Source: Mobula hypostoma (lineage: Eukaryota). From it: a stretch of DNA of 64,000 nucleotides. Within the stretch, counting starts at the first letter, position 1; each line of letters opens with the position of its first letter. The translations under genes and the position numbers were made by a program. The stretch is from NCBI RefSeq assembly GCF_963921235.1, contig NC_086108.1, forward strand, positions 1,240,001 through 1,304,000, written 5' to 3'. Under the pieces are notes generated by a model. It saw only the letters and a program-made list of their open reading frames with translations, was not told the DNA's origin and did not search any database. Of this stretch, positions 5,491-58,900 are shown in pieces.

Positions 5491-5494
5491 GATT

Positions 5495-7137: not shown

Positions 7138-7142
7138 CTGAC

Positions 7143-7654: not shown

Positions 7655-8085
7655 GAGCAACACTGGAGGAACTCAGCAGGTCAGGCAGCATCTATGGAGG
7701 AGAGTAAACAGTCATGGTTTCAGGTCAAGACCCTTCATCAGGACTGGGAATGAACCAGGATCAGGTTTATAATCACCGGCATGTGAGGTGAAGTTTGTTA
7801 ACTTTGGTTTAGAAGCCGGAATAAGGAGGACTGAGGGAAAGAGTTCAAGCTGGCAGGTGATAGGTGAAACCAGCTGAAGAGGGAAGTTGAGTGGGGAGGA
7901 AGGGGATGAAGGACGAAGGAGGAAGGAATAAGTGGAGGAGATCAAGGGCTGAAGAAGAAGGAATGGATAGGAGAGGAGAGTGGGCCATGGGAGAAAGAGT
8001 AGGAGGAGGGAAAGCAGTGGGAGGTGGAGGGAAGGCGAAGAGAAGAGAGGGGAACGGAAAAAGAAAGAAGGGGGAGTGGAAGAAA
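7655..8085 (-). mobile_element. Penelope-like element terminal-repeat remnant, interrupted by a short LINE tail at about 7752-7805
   Basis: Hammerhead motif followed by ATAGATGCTGCCTGACCTGCTGAGTTCCTCCAG on the minus strand, preceded by a long pyrimidine-rich tract. Confidence 0.7.
7709..7746 (-). ncRNA. Minimal type I hammerhead ribozyme motif, degenerate
   Basis: Minus strand: CAGTC-CTGATGA-A-GGGT CTTG ACCT-GAAAC-CAT-GACTG. Helix I is CAGTC/GACTG, helix II is present and the core boxes are intact. CAT replaces the usual GTC cleavage triplet. Confidence 0.8.
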
Positions 8086-8224
8086 TTGTTGGACATTAGA
8101 GAATGCTGTTTTTTATTCACTGTTAAAGAAATGGTGTACATTTCTGTAGCATCATTCACATCCCTTTCAGAATATTCCGGAACACACCATGGGTCATAGT
8201 ATATATATTTACAGAGTAGCGATT

Positions 8225-9260
8225 GCAGCAATCTGTGCAGACTGGAAGTAATATCTCTCCCTCACTAACAATCAAAACGAGCTCATCTCAGGGGTCTGTG
8301 CCTTGCCCGCTGTTCTACTCTCTCTAGACTCATCACTGCATGGCTAGGCACAGTCCAAATGCCATCTATAAACTTGCTGATGATACGACCATTGTTGGTA
8401 GAATCTCAGGTGAAGATGAGAGGGTGTATAGCAGAGAGATATACCAAGTGCCACAGTGCTGTCACAGCAACCTTGCACTCAATGTCAGTGAGACCAAAGA
8501 GCTGATTGTGGACTTTTGGAAGGGTAGGATGAGGGATCATGTACCAATCCACATAGAGGGATCAGAAGTAGAGAGAGCAAGCAACTTCAGGTTCCTAAGT
8601 GCCAACATCTCTGAGGGTCTGACCTGCTCCCAACATATTGGTGCAAGTGGAAAGAAGACAAGAGAGCAGCTGTATTTCACCAGGAGTTTGAGGAGATCTG
8701 GTATGATGCATAAAATGCTCGGAAACTTCTACAGATGCACTGAGGAGAGCACTTTGACTCGCTGCATCACCATCTGGTCTGGGGAGGGGGCAGTTGCACA
8801 GGATTTAAAGAAGCAAAATAAACTTACAGGATTCATCAAAGGTACGAGCTGCTGTAGTATCAATGACATCTACATGGAGCCTCGTCTCAGTAAGCCAATG
8901 TACATCGCTAAAGACATCCTTCACCTAGGACCTACACTCTTCTCATTACGACTATCAGGGAGGAGGTACAGGAGCCTGAAGGCACACACTCAATGATTCA
9001 GGAACAGCTTCTTCCCCTCCGGCATCCGATTTCTGAATGGACATTGAACACGTGAACACAACATCACTTTTTCAAAATGTCTGTTTTTGCACAACTTTTC
9101 TTAACTCAGTTATTTAATATATGTACATATATACACAAACACATTACAAATTATTCATTAATTTATTTCCCATATTTATTATGTATTCCATTGTACTGCT
9201 GCTGCTAAGTTAACAAATTTCACAACATATGCTGATAGTATTAAATTGGATACTGATTCT
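8225..9260 (+). mobile_element. 5'-truncated Rex1/Babar-like LINE (degenerate RT)
   Basis: ORF 8340-8996 (KLADDTTIVG, LNVSETKELIVDF, FRFL, LYFTRSLRR, SGRRYRSLK). An upstream QG..L.PLFYSL-like segment and an AT-rich 3' UTR ending in CTGATTCT. Confidence 0.88.
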
Positions 9261-9284
9261 GCTGGAGAGTCAACGGTCAGTCCA

Positions 9285-9426
9285 ATGTCGCAGGTGATGT
9301 TGATCAGATCTTAGGTTGTTTGTGATGTTTTGCAGAGATAACATTAGCTGCCAGGATTGTGGAGTATTGTTAGAACATTTCAAACTCTATTCATAGGATT
9401 TCACCTGGGAAAGAGTGGACTTCCTA
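9285..9426 (-). mobile_element. Degraded DeuSINE-like central domain abutting the satellite
   Basis: Ordered blocks TGATCAGAT, GTGATGTT, GAGATAA, GCCAGGA, CATAGGAT and CACCTGGGA resemble the recalled reverse-complement Deu domain (TGACCAGAT..GTGATGTT..GGGATAA..GCCAGGA..CATGGGAT..CACCTGAGA). Confidence 0.55.
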
Positions 9427-12400
9427 TCTGACAGTGAGACACTCACTCAACTGTCCCTCAGACAGTGCGACACTCCGTCAGTACTGTCCCTCTGACAGTG
9501 TGAGACTCCCTCAGTACTGTCCCTCTGACAGTGTGAAACTCCCTCAGTACTGTCCCTCTGACAGTGTGAAACTCCCTCAGTACTGTCCCTCTGACAGTGT
9601 GAGACTCCCTCAGTACTGTCCCTCTGACAGTGTGAGACTCCCTCAGTTCTGTCCCTCTGACAGTGTGAAACTCCCTCAGTACTGTCCCTCTGACAGTGTG
9701 AAACTCCCTCAGTACTGTCCCTCTGACAGTGAGACACTTCCTCAGTACTGTCCCTCTGACAGTGAGACACTTCCTCAGTACTGTCCCTCTGACAGTGTGA
9801 GACTCCCTCAGTACTGTCCCTCTGACAGTGTGAAACTCCCTCAGTACTGTCCCTCTGACAGTGTGAGACTCCCTCAGTACTGTCCCTCTGACAGTGTGAA
9901 ACTCCCTCAGTACTGTCCCTCTGACAGTGTGAAACTCCCTCAGTACTGTCCCTCTGACAGTGTGAGACTCCCTCAGTACTGTCCCTCTGACAGTGTGAGA
10001 CTCCCTCAGTTCTGTCCCTCTGAAAGTGAGACACTCCCTCAGGACTGTTCCTCTGACAGTGTGAAACTCCCTCAGTACTGTCCTTCTGACAGTGAGACAC
10101 TTCCTCAGTACTGTCTCTCTGACAGTGTGAGACTCCCTCAGTACTGTCCCTCTGACAGTGAGACACTTCCTCAGTACTGTCTCTCTGACAGTGTGAGACT
10201 CCCTCAGTACTGTCCCTCTGACAGTGTGAAACTCCCTCAGTACTGTCCCTCTGACAGTGTGAAACTCCCTCAGTACTGTCCCTCTGACAGTGTGAGACTC
10301 CCTCAGTACTGTCCCTCTGACAGTGTGAGACTCCCTCAGTTCTGTCCCTCTGACAGTGTGAAACTCCCTCAGTACTGTCCCTCTGACAGTGTGAAACTCC
10401 CTCAGTACTGTCCCTCTGACAGTGAGACACTTCCTCAGTACTGTCCCTCTGACAGTGAGACACTTCCTCAGTACTGTCCCTCTGACAGTGTGAGACTCCC
10501 TCAGTACTGTCCCTCTGACAGTGTGAAACTCCCTCAGTACTGTCCCTCTGACAGTGTGAGACTCCCTCAGTACTGTCCCTCTGACAGTGTGAAACTCCCT
10601 CAGTACTGTCCCTCTGACAGTGTGAAACTCCCTCAGTACTGTCCCTCTGACAGTGTGAGACTCCCTCAGTACTGTCCCTCTGACAGTGTGAGACTCCCTC
10701 AGTTCTGTCCCTCTGAAAGTGAGACACTCCCTCAGGACTGTTCCTCTGACAGTGTGAAACTCCCTCAGTACTGTCCTTCTGACAGTGAGACACTTCCTCA
10801 GTACTGTCTCTCTGACAGTGTGAGACTCCCTCAGTACTGTCCCTCTGACAGTGAGACACTTCCTCAGTACTGTCTCTCTGACAGTGTGAGACTCCCTCAG
10901 TACTGTCCCTCTGGCAGTGTGAAACTCCCTCAGTACTGTCCCTCTGACAGCGAGACACTCCCTCAGTACTGTCCTTCTGACAGTGAGACACTCCCTCAGT
11001 ATTGTCCCTCTGACAGTGTGACACTCCCTCAGTACTGTGCTTCTGACAGTGAGACACTCCCTCAGTATTTTTGCTCTGACAGTGTGACACTCCCTCAGTA
11101 CTGTCCCTCTGACAGTGAGACACTCCCTCAGTACTGTTCCTCCGACAGTGAGACACTCCCTCAGTACTGTCCCTCTGACAGTGTGACACTCCCTCAGTAC
11201 TGTCCCTCTGACAGTGTGACACTCCCTCAGTACTGTCCCTCCGACTGTGTGACTCTCCCTCAGTACTGTCCCTCCGACAGTGTGACGGCCCCTCAGTACT
11301 GTCCCTCTGACTGTGTGACTCTCCCTCAGTCCTGTCCCTTTGACAGTGAGAAACTCCCTCTGTACTGTCCCACTGACAGTGTGATGCTCCCTCGGTACAG
11401 TCCCTCTGACAGCGAGGCACCCCCTCGATACAGTCCCTCTGACAGGGACACTCCCTCAGTACCGCACCTCTGAGAGTGTGACACTCCCTCAGTATTGTCC
11501 CTCTCACAGTGTGACACTCCCTTAGTAATGTCCCTCTGACAGTGTGACACTCCCTCAGTACTCTCCCTCCAACAGTGGCACGGTCCGTCAGTACTGTCCA
11601 TCCGAGGCTGAGACAATCCCTCAGTATTGTCCCTCCGAAAGTTAACCATTCCCTCAGTACAGTCCCTCTGACAGTGAGGCACTCGCTCAGTACTGTCCCT
11701 CCGACAGTGAGACACTCCCTCACTACTGTCCCTCCAACAGTGGGATACACCCTCAGTACTGTCCCTCTGATAGTCTGCACTCACTCAGTACTGTCCCTCT
11801 GACAGGGAGACACGCTCTCAGTAATGAGCCTCTGACAGTGAGACACTCCCTCGGGAATGTCCCTCTGACTGTGAGACTCTCCGCCTGTACTCTCCCTCTG
11901 ACAGTGTAATATTCCCTCAGTACTGTCCCTCTGACAGTGAGATACTCCCTCACTACTGTCCCTCTGACAGGGAGACACTCCCTCACTACTGTCCCTCTGA
12001 CAGTGTGACACTACTTCAGTACAGTCCATCTGACGGTGTTACACTCCCTCAGCAATGTCCCTCTGACAGTGTGGTACTCCCTCAGTACTGACCCTCTGAC
12101 AGTCTGACACTCCCTCAGTCCGGTCCCTCTGACAGTGAGACATTCTCTCAGTACAGTCCCTCTGACAGTGAGACGCTCCCTCAGTACTGACCCTCTGACA
12201 GTGACAGTCCCTCAGTAAGGTCCCTCTGACAGTGTGACACTCCTTCAGTACTGGCTCCCTGACTGTGAGGCACTCCCTCAGTACTGTCCCTCCGACTGTG
12301 TGACTCTCCCTCAGTACTGTCCCTCCGACAGTGTGACGGCCCCTCAGTACTGTCCCTCTGACTGTGTGACTCTCCCTCAGTCCTGTCCCTTTGACAGTGA

Positions 12401-15400
12401 GAAACTCCCTCTGTACTGTCCCACTGACAGTGTGATGCTCCCTCGGTACAGTCCCTCTGACGGCGAGGCACCCCCTCGATACAGTCCCTCTGACAGGGAC
12501 ACTCCCCAAGTACCACACCTCTGAGAGTGTGACACTCCCTCAGTATTGTCCCTCTCACAGTGTGACACTCCCTTAGTAATGTCCCTCTGACAGTGTGACA
12601 CTCCCTCAGTACTCTCCCTCCAACAGTGGCACGGTCCGTCAGTAATGTCCATCCGAGGCTGAGACAATCCCTCAGTACTGTCCCTCCGAAAGTTAACCAT
12701 TCCCTCAGTACAGTCCCTCTGACAGTGAGGCACTCGCTCAGTACTGTCCCTCCGACAGTGAGACACTCCCTCACTACTGTCCCTCCAACAGTGGGATACA
12801 CCCTCAGTACTGTCCCTCTGACAGTCTGCACTCACTCAGTACTGTCCCTCTGACAGGGAGACACGCTCTCAGTAATGAGCCTCTGACAGTGAGACACTCC
12901 CTCGGGAATGTCCCTCTGACTGTGAGACTCTCCGCCTGTACTCTCCCTCTGACAGTGTAATATTCCCTCAGTACTGTCCCTCTGACAGTGAGATACTCCC
13001 TCACTACTGTCCCTCTGACAGGGAGACACTCCCTCACTACTGTCCCTCTGACAGTGTGACACTACTTCAGTACAGTCCATCTGACGGTGTTACACTCCCT
13101 CAGCAATGTCCCTCTGACAGTGTGGTACTCCCTCAGTACTGACCCTCTGACAGTCTGACACTCCCTCAGTCCGGTCCCTCTGACAGTGAGACATTCTCTC
13201 AGTACAGTCCCTCTGACAGTGAGACGCTCCCTCAGTACTGACCCTCTGACAGTGACAGTCCCTCAGTAAGGTCCCTCTGACAGTGTGACACTCCTTCAGT
13301 ACTGGCTCCCTGACTGTGAGGCACTCCCTCAGTACTGTCCGTCTGACAGTGAGACACTCCCTGAATACTGTCCCTCTGACAGTGTGACACTACTTCAGTA
13401 CAGTCCATCTGACGGTGTTACACTCCCTCAGCAATGTCCCTCTGACAGTGTGGTACTCCCTCAGTACTGACCCTCTGACAGTCTGACACTCCCTCAGTCC
13501 GGTCCCTCTGACAGTGAGACATTCTCTCAGTACAGTCCCTCTGACAGTGAGACGCTCCCTCAGTACTGACCCTCTGACAGTGACAGTCCCTCAGTAAGGT
13601 CCCTCTGACAGTGTGACACTCCTTCAGTACTGGCTCCCTGACTGTGAGGCACTCCCTCAGTACTGTCCGTCTGACAGTGAGACACTCCCTGAATACTGTC
13701 CCTCTGACAGTGAGACACTCCCTCATTACCTTCCCTCTGACTGTGTGAAATTCCTCAGTTCTGTCCCTCCGACAATGAGAGTCTCCCTCAGTACTGTCCC
13801 TCTGACAGTGAGACACTCCCTTAGTACTGTCCCTCTGACAGTCTGCACTCACTCAGTGCTGTCCCTCTGACAGAGAGACACGCTCTCAGTAATGACCCTC
13901 TGACAGTGAGACTGTCCACCAGTACTCTCCCTCTGACAGTGTGACACTTCTTCAGTACTGTCCCTTTGATAGTGAGAAGCTCGCTCAGTTCTGTCCCTCA
14001 GACTGTGTGACACTCCGTTAGTACTGTCCCTCCGACAGTGAGGCACTCCCTCAGTACAGTCACACTGATATTGAGACACTCCCTCAGTACGATCCCTCTG
14101 ACAGTGAGACACTCCCTCTGTACTGTCCCTCTCACGGTGAGACACTCACTCAGTACGGTCCCACTGACAGTGTGTAATTCCCTCAGTGCAATCCCTCCGA
14201 CTGTGAGACACTCTTTCAGTACTGTCCCTCTGACAGTGAGATACTCCCTCGGTACTCTCCTTCTGACAGTGAGACACTCGCTCGGTACGGTCCCTCCGAC
14301 AGAGAGACGATCCCTCTTTACTGTGCCTCTGACAGTGTGACATTCCCTCAGTACTGTCCCTCCGACAGCGTGACACTCCCAACGTACTGTCCCTCTGACA
14401 GTGTGACACTCCCTCAGTACTGTACCTCTGACAGTGAAACACTCCCTCAGTACTGTCCCTCTGACAGCGTGACACTCCCAACGTACTGTCCCTCTGACAG
14501 TGTGACACTCCCTCAGTACTGTCCCTCTGACAGTGAGACACTCACTCAGTGCTGTCCCTCTGACAAGGAGACACGCTCTCAGTAATGACCCTCTGACAGT
14601 GAGACTGTCCACCAGTACTCTCCCTCTGACAGTGTGACACTCCCTCAGTACTGTTCCTCTGACAGTTTGACACTCCCTCGGGAATGTCCCTCTCACAGTG
14701 AGACTCTCCGCCTGTACTCTCCTTCTGACAGTGTAACATTCCCTCAGTACCGTCCCTCTGACAGTGAGACACTCCCTCAGTACCGTCCCTCTGACGGTGT
14801 GACAGTCCCTCCGTACCATTCCTCTGAGAGTGAGACACTCCCTCACTACTGTCCCTCTGAAAGTGTGACACTCGGTCAGTACTGTCCCTCTGACAGTGTG
14901 ACACTCCCCCAGTACTCTCCTCCTGACATTGAGACACTCCCTCGGTACGGTCCTTCCGACAGTGAGACGCTCCCTCTGTACCGTCCCTCTGACAGTGTGA
15001 CACTCCCTCAGTACTGCCGCTCTGACAGTGTTGTACTCCCTCAGTACTGTCCCTCTGACGGTGTTTCACTCCCTCAGTACAGTCCCGCTGACAGTGAGAC
15101 ACTCCCAACATACTGTCCCTCTGACAATGAGACACTCCCTCAGCACCGTCCCTCTGACATCTGACACTCACTCAGTACTGTCCCGCTGACAGTGTGACAC
15201 TCCCTCAGCACCGTCCCTCTGACATCTGACACTCACTCAGTACTGTCCCGCTGACAGTGTGACACTCCCTTAGTACTGTCCCTCTGACAAGTCTGCACTC
15301 AATCAGTACTGTCCCTCTGACAGAGAGACACGCTCTCAGTAATGACCCTCTGACAGTGAGACTGTCCACCAGTACTCTCCCTCCGACAGTGAGACACTCC

Positions 15401-15709
15401 CTCAGTACTGTCCCTCTGACAGTGTGACACTCCCTTAGTAATGTCCCTCTGACAGTGTGACACTCCCTCAGGACTGTCCCTCTGACAGTGAGACACTCCC
15501 TCAGTACTGTCCATCAGACAGCGTGACACTCCCTCAGTACTGTCCCTCCGACAGTGTGACACTCCCTCAGTACTGTCCGTCTGACAGTGTGACACTCCCT
15601 CAGTACTGTCTGTCTGACAGTGTGCACTCACTCAGTAATGTCCCTCTGACAGTGAGGTACTCCCTCAGTTCCGTCCCTCTAACAGTGTGACTCTCCCCCA
15701 GTACTGTCC

Positions 15710-16215
15710 TTTTCAAGGCGTTTAGTCCACCTTTGGTCCCCACCTGGCACTCAGCTCTCACCTTTGGCTCCCCGTAGCTGTTTGCATGCGACAGCGGCCA
15801 CACCACGGGCAATGGCTTCGACAAGCCGGCAAAACCAGGTGAGGGTAGCCGACGGGTCTCAAACCTTAAGTGAGATAGGGAGTTGTCTATCCCAGCATGT
15901 GAAGACAGACTCCGGTGGATTGAGTGGACGAGACCAATGGAAGGTCCAACGGTCAAGAAAGCGGTCTCTACAAGCGTCGAGGAACGTGTAGAGCAGGAAA
16001 AGATACAGAAGACGTCCTGGTCATCCACTGCGCCTAGTCCCATCTCACGCCGTCTCGACTCTGTCTTGCCACTGGATCCAGATGGGAATTGGGAAGAGAG
16101 AGTGAGGCTGATGCTGCCCAAATCTCCCTCACTTAAATCCAAGTCACGCGCTAGTCTCGACACCACCAATAATGGTGTCGAGGTCCTCATCGATGTTGAC
16201 GATGTACGAACACAC
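15710..16215 (+). mobile_element. 506-bp non-coding retroposon inserted into a satellite monomer
   Basis: Unique sequence flanked by the TSD ACTGTCC (15703-15709 and 16216-16222) with a short (AC)n 3' tail. Homologous to 940-1455. Confidence 0.9.
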
Positions 16216-19200
16216 ACTGTCCATTTGACAGTGTGACACTCCCTCAGTACTGCCCCTCCCGCAGTGTAATGCTCCCTCAGTTCTGTCCCTCTGACAGTGA
16301 GATACTCCCTCAGTACTGTCCATCGGACAGTGAGACACTCCCCCAGTACTGTCCCTCCGAAAGTGTGACGGTCCCACAGTACTGTCCATCCGACAGTAAG
16401 ACACTCCCTCAATACTCTCCAATCGACAGTTTGGCACAACCTCAGTCCTGTCCCTCTGACAGTGAGACACTCCCTCAGTCCTGTCCCTCTGACAGTGAGG
16501 CACTCCCTCAGTACTGTCCCTCTGACAGTGAGGCACTCCCTCAGTACTGTCCATCGGACAGTGAGATATTCCCTACGTATTAACCCTCTGACAATGTGAC
16601 ATTCCATCAGTATCGTCCCTCTGACAGTGTGACACTGCCCCAGTACCGTCCTTCTGACAGTGTGACACTCCCTCAGTACCTCTCCCTGACAGTGTGACAC
16701 TCCCTCAGTACCATCCATCTGACAGTGAGACGCTCTCTCAGTACTGTCCCTCTGACAGTGAGACACTCCCTCAGTACCGTCCATCTGACGGTGTGATATT
16801 CCCTCAGTGCTGTCCCTCCGACTGTGAGACACTCCCTCAGCACTGTCCTTCTGACAGTGTGACACTCCCTCAGTACTGTGCATCTGACAGTGAGACACTC
16901 CCTCAGCACTGTCCTTCTGACAGTGTGACACTCCCTCAGCACTGTCCTTCTGACAGTGTGACACTCCCTCAGTACTGTACATCTGACAGTGAGATACTCC
17001 CAGAGTACAGTCCCTCTGACAGTGAGACCCTCCTTCAGTGCTGTTCCTCTGACAGTGTGACAATCCGTCAGTACTGTCCCTCTGACAGTGTGACACTCCC
17101 TCAGTACTCTCCTTCTGACAGCGAGTCACACCGTCAGTAGTATACCCCTGACAGTGTGACACTCCCTCAGTACTGTCCCTCTGACAGCGAGACACTCCCT
17201 CAGTCCTGTCCCTCTGACAGTGTGTCACTCGGTCAGTACTGTCCCTCTGACAGTGTGATATTCCCTCAGAGCTGTTCCTCCGACTGTGAGATACTCCCTC
17301 AGTACTGTACCTCTGACAGTGAGACACTCCCCCAGTAGTCTAGCTCTGACCTTGAGACACTCCCTCGGTACGGTCCTTCTGACAGTGAGACCTTCCCTCA
17401 GTGCTGTCCCTCTGACAATGTGACACACCGTCAGTACTGTCCCTCTGACAGTGTGACATTCCCTCAGTCCCGTCCCTCTGACAGTGTGTCACTCGGTCAG
17501 TTCTGTCCCTCTGACAGTGTGATATTCCCTCAGAGCTGTCCCTCCGACTGTGAGATACTCCCTCAGTACTGTACCTCTGACAGTGAGACACTCCCCAGTA
17601 GTCTTGCTCTGACCTTGAGACACTCCCTCGGTACGGTCCTTCTGACAGTGAGACTCTCCCTCTGTACCGTAGCTCTGACTGTGAGACACTCCCTCAGTAC
17701 TATCCCTCTGACGGTGTGACACTCCCTCAGTACTGTCTCTCTGACAGTGCTACTTTCTCTCTGTACTGTCCCTGCAAGAGTGAAACACTGCCTTACTACA
17801 GTCCCTCCGACAGTGAGATCCTCCCAGAGTACAGTCCCTCTGAAAGTGAGACCTTCCCTCAGTTCTGTCCCTCTGACAGTGCGAGACTCCCTCAGCACTG
17901 TCCCTCCGACAGTTTGACATTCCCTCGAGAATGTCCCTCTTACAGTCAGGCACTCCCTCTGTAATGTCCCTCTGACAGTGAAACTCTCCGCTTGTACTCT
18001 CCCTCTGAGAGTGTGACATTCCCTCAGTACCGTCCCTCTGACGGTGAGGCACTCACTCAGTAGTATACCACTGACAGTGAGACACTTCCTTAGTACTTTT
18101 CATCTGACTGTGAGATACTCCCACAGTACTGACAGCGTGACACTCAGTCAGTACCGTCCCTCTGACAGTGTGATATTCCCTGAGTGCTGTCCCTCCGACT
18201 GTGAGACACTCCCTCAGTACTGTACCTCTGCAGTGAGATACTCCCTGAGTACTGTCCCTCTGACAGAGTGACACATTCGCAGTACTGTTCTCTGACAGTA
18301 TGACACCCCCCTAATACTCTCGATCGGACAGTGAGACACTCCATCGGTACGGTCCCTTTGACAGTGAGAGACTCCCTCAGTACTGTCCCACTGACAGCCT
18401 GACAATCCCTCAGTACTGTCCCTTCGACAGTGTGACACACCCTAAGAACTGTCCGTCTGACAGTGTGACACTCCCTCAGTACCGACCCACTGACGGTGTG
18501 ACACTTCCTCAGTACTGTCCCTCTGACAGTGTAACACTCCCTCAGTTCTGTCCCTCTGACAGTGTGACACTCCCTCAGTCCTGTCCCTCTGACAGTGTGC
18601 ACTCACTCAGTACTGTTCCTCCGACAGTGAGACACCCCCTCAGCACTGTCCCTCTGACAGTGTGACACTCCCTCAGTTCTGTCCCTCTGACAGTGTGACA
18701 CTCCCTCAGTACTGTCCCTCTGACAGTGTGACACTCCCTCAGTACTGTCCCTCTGACAGTGTGCACTCACTCAGTACTGTCCCTCTGACAGTGTGACACT
18801 CCCTCAGTTCTGTCCCTCTGACAGTGTGACACTCCCTCAGTACTGTCACTCTGACAGTGTGCACTCACTCAGTACTGTCCCTCTGACAGTGTGACACTCC
18901 CTCAGTACTGTCCCTCTGACAGTGAGACACTCCCTCAGCACAGTTTCTCTGACAGTGAGACACTGCCTCAGTACTGTCCCTCTGACAGTTTGACATTCCC
19001 TCGGGATTGTCCCTCTGACAGTCAGGCACTCCCTCTGTAATGGCCCTCTGACAGTGAAACTCTCCGCCTGTACCCTCCCTCTGAGAATGTGACATTCTCT
19101 CAGTACCGCCCCTCTGACGGCGTGACACTCCCTTAGTACCGTCTCTCTGATGGTGTGACACGCCCTCAGTACTGTCCCTCTGACAGTGTGATATTCCCTG

Positions 19201-22200
19201 AGTGCTGTCCCTCCGACTGTGAGACACTCCCTCAGTACTGTACCTCTGCAGTGAGATACTCTCTGAGTACTCTCCCTCTGACAGAGTGACACATACTCAG
19301 TACTGTCCTCTGACAGTAAGACACTCCCCTAGTACTCTCGCTTGGACAGTGAGACACTCCTTCGGTACGGTCCCTTTGACAGTGAGACACTCCCTCAGTA
19401 CTGTCCATCTGACAGTGAGACACTCCCTCAGTACTGTCCCTCTGACAGTGTGCACTCACTCAGTACTGTCCCTCCGACAGTGAGACACTCCCTCAGCACT
19501 GTCCCTCTGACAGTGTGACACTCCCTCAGTACTGTCCCACCGACAGTGAGACACTCCCTCAGCACTGACCCTCTGACAGTGTGCACTCACTCAGTACTGT
19601 CCCCCTGAAAGAGTGACACTCCCTCAGTACTGTACCCCTGCAGTGAGATACTCTCTGAGTACTCTCCCTCTGACAGAGTGACACATACTCAGTACTGTCC
19701 TCTGACAGTAAGACACTCCCCTAGTACTCTCGCTTGGACAGTGAGACACTCCTTCGGTACGGTCCCTTTGACAGTGAGACACTCCCTCAGTACTGTCCAT
19801 CTGACAGTGAGACACTCCCTCAGTACTGTCCCTCTGACAGTGTGCACTCACTCAGTACTGTCCCTCCGACAGTGAGACACTCCCTCAGCACTGTCCCTCT
19901 GACAGTGTGACACTCCCTCAGTACTGTCCCACCGACAGTGAGACACTCCCTCAGCACTGACCCTCTGACAGTGTGCACTCACTCAGTACTGTCCCCCTGA
20001 AAGAGTGACACTCCCTCAGTGCTGTCCCTCTGACAGTGAGTGACTCCATCAGTACTGTCCGTCTGACTGTTTGACACACCCTCAGTACGGTCCCTCTGAC
20101 AGTGTGACACTCCTTCACTGCTGTCCCTCTGACTGTGAGACACTCCCCCAGTACTGTCCCTCTGACTGTGAAACACTCCGTCAGTACTGTCCCTCTGACA
20201 GTGTGTCACTCACTCAGTACTGTCCCTCTGACAGTGAGACACTCCCTCACCACTGTCTTTCTGATAGTGAGACACTACCTCAGTTCTGTCTGTTTGCAGT
20301 GAGACACTCCCTCAGTTCTGTCCCTCTGACAGAGAGACACTCACTCAGTATGGTCCCTCAGACAGAGTGACTCTCCCTCAGTACAGTCCCTCTGAGAGTG
20401 AGACACTCCCTCAGTACTGTCCCTCCGACAGTGAGACGCTCTCGCAGTACTGTCCATCTAAGAGTGTGGCACTCTCTCAGTACCGTCTCTCTGATAATGA
20501 ACATTCCCCAAGTACTGTCCCTCTGAAAGTGTGTCAGTCCCTCAGTACTGTTCATATGACTGTCAGACACTCCCTCAGTACTGCTCTCTGACAGTCACGC
20601 ACTCCGTCAGTACTGTCCCTCTAACAGTTTGACATTCCCTTAGTGCCATCCCTCTGATGGTGTGACACTCCGTCCGCACTTTCCCTCTGACAGTGTGACT
20701 CTCCCTCAGTCCTGTCCCTCTGACAGTGTGACTCTCCCTCAGTTCTGTCCCTCTGATGGTGTGACACTCCGTCCGCACTTTCCCTCTGACAGTGTGACTC
20801 TCCCTCAGTCCTGTCCCTCTGACAGTGAGACACCCCCTCAGTACTGTCCTTCTGGCAGTGTGACACTCCCTCAGTATTGTCCCTCCGACAGTTAGACACT
20901 CCATCAGTACTGTCCCTACGTGAGTGAGTCACTCCCTTACTACTGTCCCTCCGACTGTGAGACACTCAGTCAGTATTGTCCCTCTGACAGTGAGACACTC
21001 CCTCCGTACGGTCCCTCTGACCGTGAGACACTCCCTCAGTACTGTCCCTCTGACTGTGACATTCCCTCAGTACTGTCCCTCTGAGAGTGTGACTCTCCCT
21101 TAGTACAGTCCCTCTGACTGTGAAACACTCCCTCAGTACTGTACCCCTGACGTGTGACACTCCCTCAGTACTGTCCCTCTGACAGTGAGGCACTCCCTCC
21201 GTGTGGTCTCTCTGACAGTGTGATACTCCCTCAGTACTGTCCCTCAGAGAGTGTGACTCTCACTTAGTACTGCTCTTCTGACAGTGAGACACTTCCTCAG
21301 TACTGTCCCTCTGACAGTGTGACAGTCCCTCAGCAATGTCCCTCTGACAGTGAGACATCCCCTCAGTACTGTCCCTCCAAGAGTGAGACTCTCCCTTAGT
21401 ACTGTCCCTCCAACTGTGAAACACTCCCTCCGTACGGTCCCACCGACAGTGAGCCACTCCCTCAGTACAGTCCCTCTGACAGTGTGACACTCCCTCAGTA
21501 CTGTCCGTCCGACAGTTGGACACTCCCTCAGTACTGTCACTCTTAGAGTGTGACTCTCACTTAGTACTGCTCCTCTGACAGTGAGACACTTCCTCAGTAC
21601 TGTCCCTCTGACACTGTGACAGTCCCTCAGTAATGTCCCTCTGACAGTGAGACATCCCCTCAGTACTGTCCCTCCAAGAGTGAGACTCTCCCTTAGTACT
21701 GTCCCTCCAACAGTGAAACACTCCCTCAGTAAGGTCCCACCGACAGTGAGACACTCCCTCGGTACTGTCACTCTTAGAGTGTGACACACCCTTAGTACTG
21801 TCCCTCCGACTGTGAGACACTCCCTCACTACCCTCCCTCTGACAGTGTGACACTCCCTCAGTACCGTCCCTCTGACAGTGTGACACTCCCTCAGTACCGT
21901 CCCTCTGACTGTGACATTCCCTCAGTACCGTCCCTCTGACAGTGAGACACTCCCTCAGTAACGTCCCTCTGACAGTCAGACACTCCTTCAGTACTGTCTC
22001 TAAGAGTGAGACACTTCCTCAGTACTGTTCCTCCGACAGTGTGACACTCCCTCAGTGCTGTCCCTCTGACAGTGTAAGACTCCCTCAGTACTTTCCCTCC
22101 GACAGTGAGACAAACCCTCAGTACGGTCTCTCTGACAATGAGACACTCCCTCATTACTGTCCCTCTGATGGTGTGACACTCCCTCAGTATGGTCTCTCTG

Positions 22201-25200
22201 AGAATGAGACAATCCCGCAGTACTGTACCTCTGACAGTGTGAGACTCCCTCGGTACTGTCCCTCAGAGAGTGTGACTCTCACTCAGTACTGTCCCTCTGA
22301 CAGTGAGACATCCCCTCAGTACTGTCCCTCCAAGAGTGAGACTCTCCCTTAGTACTGTCCCTCCAACTGTGAAACACTCCCTCAGTACGGTCCCACCGAC
22401 AGTGAGACACTCCCTCAGTACAGTCCCTCTGACAGTGTGACACTCCCTCAGTACTGTCCGTCCGACAGTTAGACACTCCCTCAGTACTGTCACTCTTAAA
22501 GTGTGACACACCCTTAGTACTGTCCCTCCGACTGTGAGACACTCCCTCAGTACCCTCCCTCTGACAGTGTGACACTCCCTCAGTACCGTCCCTCTGACAG
22601 TGTGACACTCCCTCAGGACCGTCCCTCTGACTGTGACATTCCCTCAGTACTGTCCCTCTGACAGTGTGACACTCCCTCAGTACCATCCCTCTGACAGTGA
22701 GACACTCCCTCAGTACCGTTCCTCTGACAGACAGACCCTCCTTCAGTACTGTCTCTAAGAGTGAGACACTTCCTCAGTACTGTTCCTCCGACAGTGTGAC
22801 ACTCCCTCAGTGCTGTCCCTCTGACAGTGTAAGACTCCCTCAGTACTTTCCCTCCGACAGTGAGACAATCCCTCAGTACTGTCTCTCTGACAATGAGACA
22901 CTCCCTCATTACTGTCCCTCTGATGGTGTGACACTCCCTCAGTACGGTCTCTCTGAGAATGAGACAATCCCGCAGTACTGTACCTCTGACAGTGTGAGAC
23001 TCCCTCGGTACTGTCCCTCAGAGAGTGTAACTCTCACTCAGTACTGTCCTTCTGACAGTGAGATACTCCCTCAGTACCGTCCCTCTGACAGTGAGATACT
23101 CCCTCAGTACTGGCCCTCTGACAGACCGACACTCCCTCAGTACCGTCCCTCTGACAGTCAGACACTCCTTCAGTACTGTCTCTAAGAGTGAGACACTCCC
23201 TTAGTACTGTCCCTCTGACAGTGTGACATTCCCTCAGTACCGTCCCTCTGACAGTGTGACACTCCCTCAGTACCATCCCTCTGACAGTGAGACACTCCCT
23301 CAGTACCGTCCCTCTGACAGTCAGACACTCCTTCAGTACTGTCCCTCTGACAGTGAGATACTCCCTCACTACTGTCCCTCTGACAGGGAGACACTCCCTC
23401 ACTACTGTCCCTCTGACAGTGTGACACTACTTCAGTACAGTCCATCTGACGGTGTTACACTCCCTCAGCAATGTCCCTCTGACAGTGTGGTACTCCCTCA
23501 GTACTGACCCTCTGACAGTCTGACACTCCCTCAGTCCGGTCCCTCTGACAGTGAGACATTCTCTCAGTACAGTCCCTCTGACAGTGAGACGCTCCCTCAG
23601 TACTGACCCTCTGACAGTGACAGTCCCTCAGTAAGGTCCCTCTGACAGTGTGACACTCCTTCAGTACTGGCTCCCTGACTGTGAGGCACTCCCTCAGTAC
23701 TGTCCCTCCGACTGTGTGACTCTCCCTCAGTACTGTCCCTCCGACAGTGTGACGGCCCCTCAGTACTGTCCCTCTGACTGTGTGACTCTCCCTCAGTCCT
23801 GTCCCTTTGACAGTGAGAAACTCCCTCTGTACTGTCCCACTGACAGTGTGATGCTCCCTCGGTACAGTCCCTCTGACGGCGAGGCACCCCCTCGATACAG
23901 TCCCTCTGACAGGGACACTCCCCAAGTACCACACCTCTGAGAGTGTGACACTCCCTCAGTATTGTCCCTCTCACAGTGTGACACTCCCTTAGTAATGTCC
24001 CTCTGACAGTGTGACACTCCCTCAGTACTCTCCCTCCAACAGTGGCACGGTCCGTCAGTAATGTCCATCCGAGGCTGAGACAATCCCTCAGTACTGTCCC
24101 TCCGAAAGTTAACCATTCCCTCAGTACAGTCCCTCTGACAGTGAGGCACTCGCTCAGTACTGTCCCTCCGACAGTGAGACACTCCCTCACTACTGTCCCT
24201 CCAACAGTGGGATACACCCTCAGTACTGTCCCTCTGACAGTCTGCACTCACTCAGTACTGTCCCTCTGACAGGGAGACACGCTCTCAGTAATGAGCCTCT
24301 GACAGTGAGACACTCCCTCGGGAATGTCCCTCTGACTGTGAGACTCTCCGCCTGTACTCTCCCTCTGACAGTGTAATATTCCCTCAGTACTGTCCCTCTG
24401 ACAGTGAGATACTCCCTCACTACTGTCCCTCTGACAGGGAGTCACTCCCTCACTACTGTCCCTCTGACAGTGTGACACTACTTCAGTACAGTCCATCTGA
24501 CGGTGTTACACTCCCTCAGCAATGTCCCTCTGACAGTGTGGTACTCCCTCAGTACTGACCCTCTGACAGTCTGACACTCCCTCAGTCCGGTCCCTCTGAC
24601 AGTGAGACATTCTCTCAGTACAGTCCCTCTGACAGTGAGACGCTCCCTCAGTACTGACCCTCTGACAGTGACAGTCCCTCAGTAAGGTCCCTCTGACAGT
24701 GTGACACTCCTTCAGTACTGGCTCCCTGACTGTGAGGCACTCCCTCAGTACTGTCCGTCTGACAGTGAGACACTCCCTGAATACTGTCCCTCTGACAGTG
24801 TGACACTACTTCAGTACAGTCCATCTGACGGTGTTACACTCCCTCAGCAATGTCCCTCTGACAGTGTGGTACTCCCTCAGTACTGACCCTCTGACAGTCT
24901 GACACTCCCTCAGTCCGGTCCCTCTGACAGTGAGACATTCTCTCAGTACAGTCCCTCTGACAGTGAGACGCTCCCTCAGTACTGACCCTCTGACAGTGAC
25001 AGTCCCTCAGTAAGGTCCCTCTGACAGTGTGACACTCCTTCAGTACTGGCTCCCTGACTGTGAGGCACTCCCTCAGTACTGTCCGTCTGACAGTGAGACA
25101 CTCCCTGAATACTGTCCCTCTGACAGTGAGACACTCCCTCATTACCTTCCCTCTGACTGTGTGAAATTCCTCAGTTCTGTCCCTCCGACAATGAGAGTCT

Positions 25201-27125
25201 CCCTCAGTACTGTCCCTCTGACAGTGAGACACTCCCTTAGTACTGTCCCTCTGACAGTCTGCACTCACTCAGTGCTGTCCCTCTGACAGAGAGACACGCT
25301 CTCAGTAATGACCCTCTGACAGTGAGACTGTCCACCAGTACTCTCCCTCTGACAGTGTGACACTTCTTCAGTACTGTCCCTTTGATAGTGAGAAGCTCGC
25401 TCAGTTCTGTCCCTCAGACTGTGTGACACTCCGTTAGTACTGTCCCTCCGACAGTGAGGCACTCCCTCAGTACAGTCACACTGATATTGAGACACTCCCT
25501 CAGTACGATCCCTCTGACAGTGAGACACTCCCTCTGTACTGTCCCTCTCACGGTGAGACACTCACTCAGTACGGTCCCACTGACAGTGTGTAATTCCCTC
25601 AGTGCAATCCCTCCGACTGTGAGACACTCTTTCAGTACTGTCCCTCTGACAGTGAGATACTCCCTCGGTACTCTCCTTCTGACAGTGAGACACTCGCTCG
25701 GTACGGTCCCTCCGACAGAGAGACGATCCCTCTTTACTGTGCCTCTGACAGTGTGACATTCCCTCAGTACTGTCCCTCCGACAGCGTGACACTCCCAACG
25801 TACTGTCCCTCTGACAGTGTGACACTCCCTCAGTACTGTACCTCTGACAGTGAAACACTCCCTCAGTACTGTCCCTCTGACAGCGTGACACTCCCAACGT
25901 ACTGTCCCTCTGACAGTGTGACACTCCCTCAGTACTGTCCCTCTGACAGTGAGACACTCACTCAGTGCTGTCCCTCTGACAAGGAGACACGCTCTCAGTA
26001 ATGACCCTCTGACAGTGAGACTGTCCACCAGTACTCTCCCTCTGACAGTGTGACACTCCCTCAGTACTGTTCCTCTGACAGTTTGACACTCCCTCGGGAA
26101 TGTCCCTCTCACAGTGAGACTCTCCGCCTGTACTCTCCTTCTGACAGTGTAACATTCCCTCAGTACCGTCCCTCTGACAGTGAGACACTCCCTCAGTACC
26201 GTCCCTCTGACGGTGTGACAGTCCCTCCGTACCATTCCTCTGAGAGTGAGACACTCCCTCACTACTGTCCCTCTGAAAGTGTGACACTCGGTCAGTACTG
26301 TCCCTCTGACAGTGTGACACTCCCCCAGTACTCTCCTCCTGACATTGAGACACTCCCTCGGTACGGTCCTTCCGACAGTGAGACGCTCCCTCTGTACCGT
26401 CCCTCTGACAGTGTGACACTCCCTCAGTACTGCCGCTCTGACAGTGTTGTACTCCCTCAGTACTGTCCCTCTGACGGTGTTTCACTCCCTCAGTACAGTC
26501 CCGCTGACAGTGAGACACTCCCAACATACTGTCCCTCTGACAATGAGACACTCCCTCAGCACCGTCCCTCTGACATCTGACACTCACTCAGTACTGTCCC
26601 GCTGACAGTGTGACACTCCCTCAGCACCGTCCCTCTGACATCTGACACTCACTCAGTACTGTCCCGCTGACAGTGTGACACTCCCTTAGTACTGTCCCTC
26701 TGACAAGTCTGCACTCAATCAGTACTGTCCCTCTGACAGAGAGACACGCTCTCAGTAATGACCCTCTGACAGTGAGACTGTCCACCAGTACTCTCCCTCC
26801 GACAGTGAGACACTCCCTCAGTACTGTCCCTCTGACAGTGTGACACTCCCTTAGTAATGTCCCTCTGACAGTGTGACACTCCCTCAGGACTGTCCCTCTG
26901 ACAGTGAGACACTCCCTCAGTACTGTCCATCAGACAGCGTGACACTCCCTCAGTACTGTCCCTCCGACAGTGTGACACTCCCTCAGTACTGTCCGTCTGA
27001 CAGTGTGACACTCCCTCAGTACTGTCTGTCTGACAGTGTGCACTCACTCAGTAATGTCCCTCTGACAGTGAGGTACTCCCTCAGTTCCGTCCCTCTAACA
27101 GTGTGACTCTCCCCCAGTACTGTCC

Positions 27126-27631
27126 TTTTCAAGGCGTTTAGTCCACCTTTGGTCCCCACCTGGCACTCAGCTCTCACCTTTGGCTCCCCGTAGCTGTTTG
27201 CATGCGACAGCGGCCACACCACGGGCAATGGCTTCGACAAGCCGGCAAAACCAGGTGAGGGTAGCCGACGGGTCTCAAACCTTAAGTGAGATAGGGAGTT
27301 GTCTATCCCAGCATGTGAAGACAGACTCCGGTGGATTGAGTGGACGAGACCAATGGAAGGTCCAACGGTCAAGAAAGCGGTCTCTACAAGCGTCGAGGAA
27401 CGTGTAGAGCAGGAAAAGATACAGAAGACGTCCTGGTCATCCACTGCGCCTAGTCCCATCTCACGCCGTCTCGACTCTGTCTTGCCACTGGATCCAGATG
27501 GGAATTGGGAAGAGAGAGTGAGGCTGATGCTGCCCAAATCTCCCTCACTTAAATCCAAGTCACGCGCTAGTCTCGACACCACCAATAATGGTGTCGAGGT
27601 CCTCATCGATGTTGACGATGTACGAACACAC
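27126..27631 (+). mobile_element. Second copy of the 506-bp retroposon, produced by the 11.4-kb duplication
   Basis: Same sequence, same TSD (27119-27125 and 27632-27638) and same flanking variant monomers, exactly 11416 bp downstream. Confidence 0.9.
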
Positions 27632-30600
27632 ACTGTCCATTTGACAGTGTGACACTCCCTCAGTACTGCCCCTCCCGCAGTGTAATGCTCCCTCAGTTCT
27701 GTCCCTCTGACAGTGAGATACTCCCTCAGTACTGTCCATCGGACAGTGAGACACTCCCCCAGTACTGTCCCTCCGAAAGTGTGACGGTCCCACAGTACTG
27801 TCCATCCGACAGTAAGACACTCCCTCAATACTCTCCAATCGACAGTTTGGCACAACCTCAGTCCTGTCCCTCTGACAGTGAGACACTCCCTCAGTCCTGT
27901 CCCTCTGACAGTGAGGCACTCCCTCAGTACTGTCCCTCTGACAGTGAGGCACTCCCTCAGTACTGTCCATCGGACAGTGAGATATTCCCTACGTATTAAC
28001 CCTCTGACAATGTGACATTCCATCAGTATCGTCCCTCTGACAGTGTGACACTGCCCCAGTACCGTCCTTCTGACAGTGTGACACTCCCTCAGTACCTCTC
28101 CCTGACAGTGTGACACTCCCTCAGTACCATCCATCTGACAGTGAGACGCTCTCTCAGTACTGTCCCTCTGACAGTGAGACACTCCCTCAGTACCGTCCAT
28201 CTGACGGTGTGATATTCCCTCAGTGCTGTCCCTCCGACTGTGAGACACTCCCTCAGCACTGTCCTTCTGACAGTGTGACACTCCCTCAGTACTGTGCATC
28301 TGACAGTGAGACACTCCCTCAGCACTGTCCTTCTGACAGTGTGACACTCCCTCAGCACTGTCCTTCTGACAGTGTGACACTCCCTCAGTACTGTACATCT
28401 GACAGTGAGATACTCCCAGAGTACAGTCCCTCTGACAGTGAGACCCTCCTTCAGTGCTGTTCCTCTGACAGTGTGACAATCCGTCAGTACTGTCCCTCTG
28501 ACAGTGTGACACTCCCTCAGTACTCTCCTTCTGACAGCGAGTCACACCGTCAGTAGTATACCCCTGACAGTGTGACACTCCCTCAGTACTGTCCCTCTGA
28601 CAGCGAGACACTCCCTCAGTCCTGTCCCTCTGACAGTGTGTCACTCGGTCAGTACTGTCCCTCTGACAGTGTGATATTCCCTCAGAGCTGTTCCTCCGAC
28701 TGTGAGATACTCCCTCAGTACTGTACCTCTGACAGTGAGACACTCCCCCAGTAGTCTAGCTCTGACCTTGAGACACTCCCTCGGTACGGTCCTTCTGACA
28801 GTGAGACCTTCCCTCAGTGCTGTCCCTCTGACAATGTGACACACCGTCAGTACTGTCCCTCTGACAGTGTGACATTCCCTCAGTCCCGTCCCTCTGACAG
28901 TGTGTCACTCGGTCAGTTCTGTCCCTCTGACAGTGTGATATTCCCTCAGAGCTGTCCCTCCGACTGTGAGATACTCCCTCAGTACTGTACCTCTGACAGT
29001 GAGACACTCCCCAGTAGTCTTGCTCTGACCTTGAGACACTCCCTCGGTACGGTCCTTCTGACAGTGAGACTCTCCCTCTGTACCGTAGCTCTGACTGTGA
29101 GACACTCCCTCAGTACTATCCCTCTGACGGTGTGACACTCCCTCAGTACTGTCTCTCTGACAGTGCTACTTTCTCTCTGTACTGTCCCTGCAAGAGTGAA
29201 ACACTGCCTTACTACAGTCCCTCCGACAGTGAGATCCTCCCAGAGTACAGTCCCTCTGAAAGTGAGACCTTCCCTCAGTTCTGTCCCTCTGACAGTGCGA
29301 GACTCCCTCAGCACTGTCCCTCCGACAGTTTGACATTCCCTCGAGAATGTCCCTCTTACAGTCAGGCACTCCCTCTGTAATGTCCCTCTGACAGTGAAAC
29401 TCTCCGCTTGTACTCTCCCTCTGAGAGTGTGACATTCCCTCAGTACCGTCCCTCTGACGGTGAGGCACTCACTCAGTAGTATACCACTGACAGTGAGACA
29501 CTTCCTTAGTACTTTTCATCTGACTGTGAGATACTCCCACAGTACTGACAGTGTGACACTCAGTCAGTACCGTCCCTCTGACAGTGTGATATTCCCTGAG
29601 TGCTGTCCCTCCGACTGTGAGACACTCCCTCAGTACTGTACCTCTGCAGTGAGATACTCCCTGAGTACTGTCCCTCTGACAGAGTGACACATTCGCAGTA
29701 CTGTTCTCTGACAGTATGACACCCCCCTAATACTCTCGATCGGACAGTGAGACACTCCATCGGTACGGTCCCTTTGACAGTGAGAGACTCCCTCAGTACT
29801 GTCCCACTGACAGCCTGACAATCCCTCAGTACTGTCCCTTCGACAGTGTGACACACCCTAAGAACTGTCCGTCTGACAGTGTGACACTCCCTCAGTACCG
29901 ACCCACTGACGGTGTGACACTTCCTCAGTACTGTCCCTCTGACAGTGTAACACTCCCTCAGTTCTGTCCCTCTGACAGTGTGACACTCCCTCAGTCCTGT
30001 CCCTCTGACAGTGTGCACTCACTCAGTACTGTTCCTCCGACAGTGAGACACCCCCTCAGCACTGTCCCTCTGACAGTGTGACACTCCCTCAGTTCTGTCC
30101 CTCTGACAGTGTGACACTCCCTCAGTACTGTCCCTCTGACAGTGTGACACTCCCTCAGTACTGTCCCTCTGACAGTGTGCACTCACTCAGTACTGTCCCT
30201 CTGACAGTGTGACACTCCCTCAGTTCTGTCCCTCTGACAGTGTGACACTCCCTCAGTACTGTCACTCTGACAGTGTGCACTCACTCAGTACTGTCCCTCT
30301 GACAGTGTGACACTCCCTCAGTACTGTCCCTCTGACAGTGAGACACTCCCTCAGCACAGTTTCTCTGACAGTGAGACACTGCCTCAGTACTGTCCCTCTG
30401 ACAGTTTGACATTCCCTCGGGATTGTCCCTCTGACAGTCAGGCACTCCCTCTGTAATGGCCCTCTGACAGTGAAACTCTCCGCCTGTACCCTCCCTCTGA
30501 GAATGTGACATTCTCTCAGTACCGCCCCTCTGACGGCGTGACACTCCCTTAGTACCGTCTCTCTGATGGTGTGACCACGCCCTCAGTACTGTCCCTCTGA

Positions 30601-57300: not shown

Positions 57301-58900
57301 ACACTCCCTCAGTGCTGTCCCTCTGACAGTGTGAGACTCCCTCAGTACTGTCCCTCCGACAGTGAGACACTCCCTCAGTACTGTCTCTCTGACAATGAGA
57401 CACTCCTCATTACTGTCACTCTGATGGTGTGACACTCCCTCAGTACTGTCCCTCTGACAGTGTGACACTCCCTCAGTTCTGTCCCTCTGACAGTGTGACA
57501 CTCCCTCAGTACTGTACCTCTGACAGTGTGAGACTCCCTCAGTACTGTCCCTCAGAGAGTGTGACTCTCACTCAGTACTGTCCCTCTGACAGTGAGACAT
57601 CACTCAGGTCTGTCCCTCTGACAGTGTGACACACCGTCAGTACTGTCCCTCTGACACTGTAACAGTCGGTCAGTACCATCCTTCTGACAGTGTGACACTT
57701 CGTCAGTACTGTCCCTCTGACAGTGTGACACTCCCTCAGTACTGTCCCTCTGATGGTGTGACACTCCCTCAGTACTGTAGCTCTGACAGTGACACACTCC
57801 CTCACTACTGTCCTTCTGGCATTGTGACACTCCCTCAGTACTGTCCCTCTGACAGTGAGACACTTCTTCAGTACTGTTCCTCCGACAGTGTGACACTCCC
57901 TCAGTGCTGTCCCTCTGACAGTGTGAGACTCCCTCAGTATTGTCCCTCCGACAGTGAGACACTCCCTCAGTACTGTCTCTCTGACAATGAGACACTCCTC
58001 ATTACTGTCACTCTGATGGTGTGACACTCCCTCAGTACTGTCCCTCTGACAGTGTGACACTCCCTCAGTTCTGTCCCTCTGACAGTGTGACACTCCCTCA
58101 GTACTGTCCCTCTGAGAATGAGACAAATCCACAGTACTGTACCTCTGACAGTGTGAGACTCCCTCAGTACTGTCCCTCAGAGAGTGTCACTCTCACTCAG
58201 TACTGTCCCTCTGATAGTGAGACATCACTGAGGACTGTCCCTCTGACAGTGAGACACTTCCTCAGTACTGTCCCTCACAGAGTGTGACTCTCGCTCAGTA
58301 CTGTCCCTCTGAAAGTGAGACACCACTCACTTCTGTCCCTCTGGCAGTGAGACACCCCTCAGTTCTGTCCCTCTGACAGTGAGACACTTCCTCAGTACTG
58401 TCCCTCTGGCAATGATGCACCTCTCAGTTCCGTCCCTCTGACAGTGTGACACACCGTCAGTACTGTCCCTCTGACACTGTGACACTCGGTCAGTACCATC
58501 CTTCTGACAGTGTGACACTCCCTCAGTACTGTCCATCTGACGGTGTGACACTTCCTCATTACTGTCCCTCTGACAGTGTGACACTCCCTCAGTGCTGTCC
58601 CTCTGACAGTGAGACACTCCCTCAGCACTGTCCCTCTGACAGTGTGACACTCCCTCAGTTCTGTCTCTCTGACAGTGTGACACTCCCTCAGTACTGTCCC
58701 TCCGTCTGTGAGACACTCCCTCAGTACTGTCCCTCTGACAGTGTGACACTCCCTCAGTGCTGTTTCTCTGACAGTGTGATACTCCCTGAGTACTGTCCCT
58801 CTGACAGTGAGACACTCCCTCAGTACTGTCCCTCTGACAGTGTGACACTCCCTCAGTTCTGTCTCTCTGACAATGAGACACTCCCACAGTACTGTCCCTC
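39400..58900 (+). repeat. Non-adjacent duplication: about 39.4-45.8 kb repeated at about 53.1-58.9 kb
   Basis: Matching ORFs at offsets 13682 (39438/53120, 41575/55257), 13320 (43114/56434, 44109/57429) and 13122 (44899/58021, 45205/58327). Confidence 0.88.

Follow-up and report, generated by a model that had tools for sequence, protein, structure and literature searches.

The sequence analysed here (the window) is a 64,000-nt stretch of the Mobula hypostoma genome, contig NC_086108.1, which corresponds to positions 1240001-1304000 of the 118-Mb contig referred to below as C50; the assembly that was searched comprises 3.48 Gb in 200 contigs. The window holds the greater part of a satellite array with a 33-bp unit, and to the left of this array lie remnants of a short interspersed element (SINE) interrupted by a retrotransposon-like repeat. 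A further part of the SINE is found past the other end of the array, outside the window. The unit itself corresponds to an internal segment of the SINE, and we consider it probable that the array grew in place from a 33-nt segment of a resident SINE copy. Stretches taken from the same assembly for comparison are designated by L-numbers.

Tandem Repeats Finder (TRF) delimited the array within the window with a period of 33, 1,659.3 copies and 80% matches (Table 1). The array overruns the window and stops at about position 9135 of stretch L071, i.e., at C50:1323135, so that its total extent is approximately 73.7 kb and not the 54 kb given in the initial annotation, which was made from the letters of the window. 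Fuzzy matching recognised 2,208 units in the whole array, and the figure of at least 1,600 units proposed in that annotation is already reached within the window. The minus-strand column consensus of the 2,208 units is exactly the same string as the reverse-complement monomer that had been proposed. The exact consensus unit occurs 13 times in the unit split of the array, and the mean number of differences from the consensus per unit is between 2.8 and 4.1 along the array. The G + C content is 0.52-0.54 and the GC skew is strongly negative along the entire array. Being a long head-to-tail array of a short non-coding unit (73.7 kb, 2,208 units), it is a satellite in the classical sense.

The central triplet of the unit is TCA in 1,156 of the 2,208 units and TCT in 778, while CTG is not present in any of them. 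The bulk of the units end in GGA, with GA as the final two bases in 1,852 of the 2,208, and the endings TA and GG are minor variants (66 hits). The central three bases are flanked by the short inverted arms AGTG and CACT. Inside the array, an exact run of 5,109 bases is duplicated at an offset of 11,416. Identity at this offset was 1.00 in 1-kb samples at 12000, 14000, 16000 and 18000 and 0.16-0.45 elsewhere, and the other offsets tried gave identities of 0.15-0.73. The block may have been duplicated very recently, or the repeat may be an artefact of the assembly.

The SINE was recognised through a 26-nt piece of the SINE string quoted in the initial annotation, which has 318 matches in the genome at no more than one mismatch (the control pattern has none). 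These matches lie mostly inside other tandem arrays and few of them are solitary; one solitary copy, L013, is a complete element of about 460 bp. A profile was built by iterated nhmmer solely from copies within this genome, with L013 and later L041 as query copies, and in its final form it has 462 positions and is based on 59 copy hits. The solitary copies are on average 72.5% identical to the consensus over positions 136-462 (40 copies, range 60-85%). The SINE consensus carries an A-box-like motif, TGGCTCAGTGA, at position 6 and a B-box-like motif, GGTTCAAGTCC, at position 48, each with one mismatch to the box consensus. ARAGORN found a tRNA-Leu-like fold at consensus positions 3-70 at the relaxed threshold only and none by default, and the Rfam search returned no match in six SINE copies at E-values up to 1.

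The SINE segment matched by the array unit spans profile positions 103-135. Array consensus and SINE consensus agree at 28 of 33 positions, and the only differences are found at unit positions 17-19 (TCA or TCT in the array, CTG in the SINE) and 32-33 (GA in the array, TG in the SINE). One edge unit agrees with the SINE profile at 27 of 31 positions (nhmmer E 6.8e-6). The proposal that the unit is an internal segment of an apparently tRNA-headed SINE was supported, and a SINE bearing the motif does exist in the genome. The parent element fits the published description of SacSINE1, a tRNA-headed SINE of Deu type, in a comparison made by description and not by sequence. SacSINE1 of cartilaginous fishes is described as having copies of up to 463 bp with 74-75% identity, a tRNA head, a Deu domain and an L2 tail, and its conserved Deu core occupies positions 124-258 according to Table 1 of the same source (Luchetti et al. 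2017, PMC5499810). The motif had been placed just 5' of the Deu domain; by the published coordinates, on which alone its place was judged, it appears to be located at or across the 5' edge of this domain and not clearly 5' of it.

The part of the SINE downstream of the motif was found on the left side of the array, on the strand of the units. When the inserted repeat is set aside, the sequence running from 9426 down to 9263 and then from 8228 down to 8110 aligns end to end to profile positions 162-456. This alignment scores 48.5 bits (z 7.9), a value reached by none of 5,000 dinucleotide shuffles and none of 1,446 genomic controls, and 165 of its 248 aligned positions are identical to the SINE consensus. 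The two pieces also map separately to adjoining profile ranges: the piece next to the array aligns to positions 162-354 with 16.8 bits (reached by 22 of 2,000 shuffles and 49 of 1,586 controls), and the piece beyond the inserted repeat to positions 341-456 with 33.9 bits (none of 2,000 shuffles, one of 1,626 controls). Just left of the inserted repeat, nhmmer matched 8185->8125 to profile positions 384-441 on the minus strand (E 0.009), which is the best match in 1-9426 on both strands. The raw 250 nt left of the array, with nothing excised, score 31.6 bits against the profile that follows the motif (4 of 1,000 shuffles); the alignment covers profile positions 175-306, i.e., window positions 9413->9292, again on the unit strand. 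The key flank statistics were obtained with our own profile-alignment scoring against dinucleotide shuffles and real-DNA controls, after several tests had failed. A pairwise alignment of the left flank, made against an early consensus, did not reach significance (62 of 500 shuffles), and an nhmmer alignment anchored on two units did not extend into this flank. A longer version of the joined flank used earlier scored 27.7 bits (0 of 1,000 shuffles, 0 of 950 controls). The opposite-strand reading of the left flank was the best one at an early stage (E 0.89; 7 of 500 shuffles), fell to 2.4 bits (168 of 1,000) with the improved profile and was rejected. The initial annotation had described Deu-like blocks in this flank that end about where the monomer template should start; the downstream SINE part on the same strand is indeed present, but about 26 profile positions are missing between the motif and the flank.

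A SINE head on the minus strand had been predicted at the far end of the array, and it was found there. The 150 nt past the array align on the minus strand to profile positions 50-95 (30 of 47 columns identical) with a local score of 23.9 bits, which was reached by none of 2,000 shuffles and 9 of 1,610 controls, while the opposite strand was equalled by 1,825 of 2,000 shuffles. The alignment stops 7 profile positions before the motif. At the 5' edge of the array, two decayed units separate this head from the regular ones, and both of these outermost units have the SINE-type ending GTG. As head, array, and body with tail are in register, the locus is read as one SINE copy split at the motif by the array. 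Within the sensitivity of the search, neither array flank has a second copy in the genome, so the array does not belong to a larger multi-copy element.

Table 1. Features of the locus; positions are those of the window unless the contig is named.
Feature	Position	Strand	Basis
3' tail remnant of the host SINE (profile 341-456), severed by the later insertion	8110..8228	-	profile alignment, nhmmer
5'-truncated copy of a very abundant retrotransposon-like repeat, inside the SINE remnant	8229..9262	+	40 other copies
Deu-region remnant of the host SINE (profile 162-354), abuts the array	9263..9426	-	profile alignment; unique in genome
33-bp satellite array, unit = SINE profile 103-135	9427..64000, onward to C50:1323135	-	TRF, unit table
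First copy of the near-perfect internal array duplication (second copy 24443-29551)	13027..18135		exact 5,109-base run

The satellite is not confined to this locus. A 30-nt unit-to-unit junction has 8,803 occurrences in the genome at no more than two mismatches (control pattern 0), and 975 of these are located in the C50 array, which thus accounts for about one ninth of the family. A 331-nt piece of the array gave at least 346 matches at 86-91% identity with 37 of 779 candidates scored; among these, matches lie on contigs C63, C36, C45, C22, C67, C73, C81, C24 and C50. The consensus unit is identical to that of the C50 array in 11 of 15 other arrays and differs by one to four bases in the remaining four. 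The claim that the satellite was born at this very locus finds no support in the form given, in view of this dispersed family with a shared consensus and the lack of CTG units in the array.

Sixteen other arrays were sampled for the analysis of their ends. This sample is small and non-random: three arrays came from the 26-nt motif search, which biases them towards arrays with the SINE-type unit, and 13 were picked as seemingly short from the search with the 331-nt piece. No array end was captured in L096, and L098 and L099 are not independent of each other. In a uniform test (local profile score equalled by no more than 5 of 1,000 shuffles), the SINE head was present at 4 of the 14 captured 5' ends (L010, L092, L093 and L103) and the SINE tail at 4 of the 11 captured 3' ends (L012, L092, L094 and L102). 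By this test, 7 of 15 arrays have a SINE part at one end at least, or 8 of 15 when L101 is counted, in which the SINE tail lies 300 nt farther on (E 6.8e-10); seven arrays show none. Plain nhmmer on the SINE-bearing ends gave E-values from 1e-4 to 3e-22, and L092 is flanked on both sides (head E 0.0026, tail E 1.8e-12). Such parts are found at array ends far above chance, because control DNA contains just 3 SINE hits in 92.6 kb, and the expectation that other arrays of this 33-mer would be non-random with respect to SINE flanks was borne out.

The SINE parts beside the arrays are 59-71% identical to the SINE consensus. Compared with each other over profile positions 136-300, they show identities of 0.37-0.50 (three pairs, the flank in the window not being among them), and random pairs of SINE copies show 0.55 +/- 0.07 over the same positions (496 pairs). 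The 3' junction between array and SINE is offset by 0, -65, +21 (L092) and +26 (L094) profile positions, depending on the locus. At L012, a homogeneous family-type array directly adjoins a resident SINE-type copy, and the two differ at about 11 of 33 positions.

Several arrays depart from the common form. The array at C12:122.50 Mb (L010, L015-L035) has a 48-bp unit, consisting of the 33-mer with CTG or CAG and a 15-nt partial copy, and in L010 the SINE head part stands at its 5' edge. Arrays with other central triplets, namely CTT (often with 66-bp spacing) and TTG, were found at C45:111.47 Mb and C36:61.97 Mb and seem to form sub-families of the satellite. The 5' flanks of two arrays located on opposite strands of C22, at 120.77 and 119.94 Mb, are 92% identical over about 435 nt (L098:1312-1760 and L099:1-435); either the arrays were copied together with their surroundings or both lie beside the same younger repeat. 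In L097, at 1376-1437, the SINE motif and the start of the Deu domain (profile 103-183, E 1.1e-5) appear in the middle of the array region, where two arrays may abut. The 3' end of the L095 array meets a different interspersed repeat, which presumably resembles another SINE common in cartilaginous fishes.

With regard to position, the C50 array lies at 1.25-1.32 Mb of the 118-Mb contig, i.e., 1.25 Mb from the contig end. On a given contig, the arrays of the family gather within a single region of a few Mb, which often lies in mid-contig, as on C67 (27-29 Mb of 63.8 Mb) and C63 (29-31 Mb of 70.7 Mb). The cluster sites are 119.6-120.8 Mb on C22, 96.4-98.9 Mb on C36, 103.8-111.5 Mb on C45, 27.3-29.0 Mb on C67, 29.2-31.4 Mb on C63 and 27.5-27.7 Mb on C73. 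A pattern of one cluster per contig would fit pericentromeric DNA.

The analysis shows that head, array, and body with tail are in register, that the unit is homologous to the SINE, that the family is dispersed and that the ends of other arrays are enriched in SINE parts. From this we infer the following order of events, with its mode of duplication and exchange between loci. An old SINE copy of about 460 bp would have resided at the locus on the minus strand, and its segment corresponding to profile positions 103-135 would have been duplicated head to tail in place, with short direct repeats at the borders of the segment as the likely sites of slippage or unequal exchange. The SINE-type junctions at the 5' edge may be the trace of this initial local duplication. 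Unequal crossing-over, together with duplications of blocks several kb long, would then have enlarged the proto-array to about 2,200 units (73.7 kb), and this growth would have driven the SINE head and the SINE body with its tail 74 kb apart. The bulk of the array would have been homogenised with other arrays of the family, so that SINE-type bases were left in the outermost units only, and the retrotransposon would have landed in the tail part of the SINE afterwards.

A number of observations speak against local growth or weaken the evidence on which it rests. The SINE triplet CTG is absent from all 2,208 units, and since the consensus is identical in 11 of 15 arrays on other contigs, the bulk of the array is indistinguishable from imported sequence. 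The roughly 26 profile positions (about 136-161) missing at the 3' junction, with similar offsets of +21 and +26 at L092 and L094, are not predicted by simple slippage. Hairpin propensity was rejected as the cause of slippage, as the z-values for the units are marginal (-2.2, -1.9 and -1.6) and the array interior shows none (0.06). Plain nhmmer with three successive profiles revealed no SINE similarity in 9263-9426 and detected nothing in the far flank. The minus-strand tests with the first profile were not significant (local, 400 of 1,000 shuffles; end to end, 34 of 500), nor was the end-to-end test of 110 nt of the far flank (356 of 2,000 shuffles). Furthermore, the excision of the inserted repeat was decided only after a weak hit had appeared, and it is through the assembly that the two flanks are linked over 74 kb of satellite.

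The main alternative, which we regard as possible although clearly less probable than growth in place, is that the satellite was born once elsewhere from the SINE family and entered this copy and others through the shared 33 bases. A break could have been repaired with another array as the template, or a circular satellite molecule could have recombined with the SINE copy, and no local birth would be needed. Such an import would account for the consensus unit common to most of the other arrays sampled and for the complete lack of CTG-type units among the 2,208. It also agrees with the host SINE parts being only 59-71% like the consensus and no closer to each other than random copies are, and with the junction in L012, where the family-type array adjoins a resident SINE-type copy with about 11 of 33 differences. 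At three loci (the window, L094 and L092), moreover, the 3' junction lies at a second small patch of similarity about 26 positions past the motif. However, the two decayed units with SINE-type junctions at the 5' edge of the C50 array suggest that a local duplication preceded homogenisation, and recombination would not be favoured by a shared stretch of 33 bases that includes five mismatches. The shared units are explained equally well by concerted evolution, which is reported for SINE-derived satellites of squamates (PMC10702118).

Since the units are common to many loci while the host SINE copies are old and dissimilar, either exchange between arrays or seeding from existing arrays has to be assumed. 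It is possible, though less probable than growth in place followed by exchange, that old SINE copies serve as dispersed landing pads, an established satellite copying itself into them by way of the shared 33 bases. Were this true, SINE halves in register would flank many arrays that are far younger than their hosts, and this would constitute a homology-guided dispersal of a satellite without transposition.

Given the contrast in age between units and hosts, an old SINE subfamily that already bore arrays cannot be the only cause. A subfamily with an internal run of the 33-mer that spread by retrotransposition, the copy on C50 having expanded later, is very improbable. The SINE parts in register at 8 of the 25 other array ends would be expected from it, and the units are free of a T-run that would stop polymerase III. 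On the other hand, the SINE parts next to arrays have decayed to the same degree as solitary copies (59-71%, the mean of the solitary copies being 72.5%) and are no closer to each other than random copies, the 3' junctions vary by locus (0, -65, +21, +26), and the array consensus has not diverged between loci whereas the flanks have. A junction of the SINE head with a family-type unit gave no hits at up to two mismatches, a test of low power as the SINE-type junction itself gave only three. The view that the flank similarities are due to chance or to unrelated repeats, and that the array is merely another site of a dispersed satellite, is equally improbable and already disfavoured: nhmmer alone found nothing significant in 9263-9426, the opposite strand was once the best with E 0.89 and several tests were tried before one passed, but the score of the joined flank was reached by none of 5,000 shuffles and none of 1,446 real-DNA controls, three separate pieces lie on one strand in the right order and spacing, and plain nhmmer finds a like arrangement at other arrays, with E-values from 1e-5 to 1e-22.

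The locus clearly exemplifies the seeding of satellite DNA by a mobile element, which until now had been described in scaled reptiles. In the SINE-derived satellites of squamates (sSats), the unit is a portion of a tRNA-related SINE, and the terminal units run into the neighbouring SINE up to its end, on one side or rarely on both (Vassetzky, Kosushkin and Ryskov 2023, PMC10702118). These satellites occupy many loci, with short variable loci beside long uniform ones, and the homogeneity of their units within and between loci is read as concerted evolution; they are not amplified like typical satellites, comprise up to 1,000 units and prefer subtelomeric positions (PMC10702118). The satellite described here is similar in that its 33-bp unit derives from a portion of a SINE (28 of 33 bases identical to profile 103-135), its terminal units continue into the SINE (on the 3' side to profile position 456, on the 5' side at profile 50-95, and at 8 of 25 other ends), and its units are homogeneous within and between several loci. 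It differs in its host species, its short unit and its parent element, which by description is of Deu type instead of Squam1-3, and in its size, a single array reaching about 2,200 units and 74 kb as against up to 1,000 units. A subtelomeric preference is not clearly seen here, with this array 1.25 Mb from the contig end and other clusters in mid-contig.

SacSINE1 and LmeSINE1 belong to the DeuSINE superfamily (Luchetti et al. 2017, PMC5499810; Nishihara et al. 2016, PMC4824008). By description, the parent element resembles them in its head with A- and B-box-like motifs, its long conserved body, its length of about 460 bp and the approximately 72% likeness of its copies to the consensus. Tandem arrays are not mentioned for either element in the text of PMC5499810, where the word "tandem" has no occurrence, or in the passages of PMC4824008 concerned with them. 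The birth of satellites from other transposable elements is treated as a general concept in the review part of PMC10702118. As in those cases, an internal piece of a dispersed element has become the unit of a long array; both halves of the hosting copy are still recognisable here, which is rarely shown. No published description of the unit string, or of this satellite among those of sharks or skates, was found in a literature search that had most subscription journals outside its reach.

The origin of satellites is mostly deduced from the likeness of the unit to a transposable element, whereas at this locus the host SINE can be read on both sides of a 74-kb array. As the same arrangement recurs at other loci, the seed, the borders and the growth of such an array become directly accessible to study. 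The occurrence of sSats outside squamates was left uncertain by the authors who described them (PMC10702118), and the present case extends SINE-derived satellites beyond squamates to an ancient and widely shared type of SINE. It also indicates that they can reach the size of true satellites. The combination of identical units with old and dissimilar hosts makes it possible to test spread by exchange between arrays against invasion of homologous sites.

The repeat inserted in the SINE remnant belongs to a very abundant family, as 40 other copies cover 8229-9261 at 70-76% identity, out of 16,964 first-look candidates. It contains an open frame of 222 codons on the plus strand (8328-8996), for which the Pfam search returned ALKBH8_N alone, below the cut-off. 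We assign the repeat to the long interspersed elements (LINEs) as the probable class. By eye, no target-site duplication was found around it, and it shares no 3' end with the SINE tail. The 3' end of the same repeat family also abuts the array in L093.

A weak similarity to the SINE head is present on the minus strand at window positions 6963-7027 (profile 35-110, E 0.077), which may represent another decayed copy. Four short tandem repeats unrelated to the satellite, with periods of 29, 21, 29 and 64, are located at window positions 35-456.

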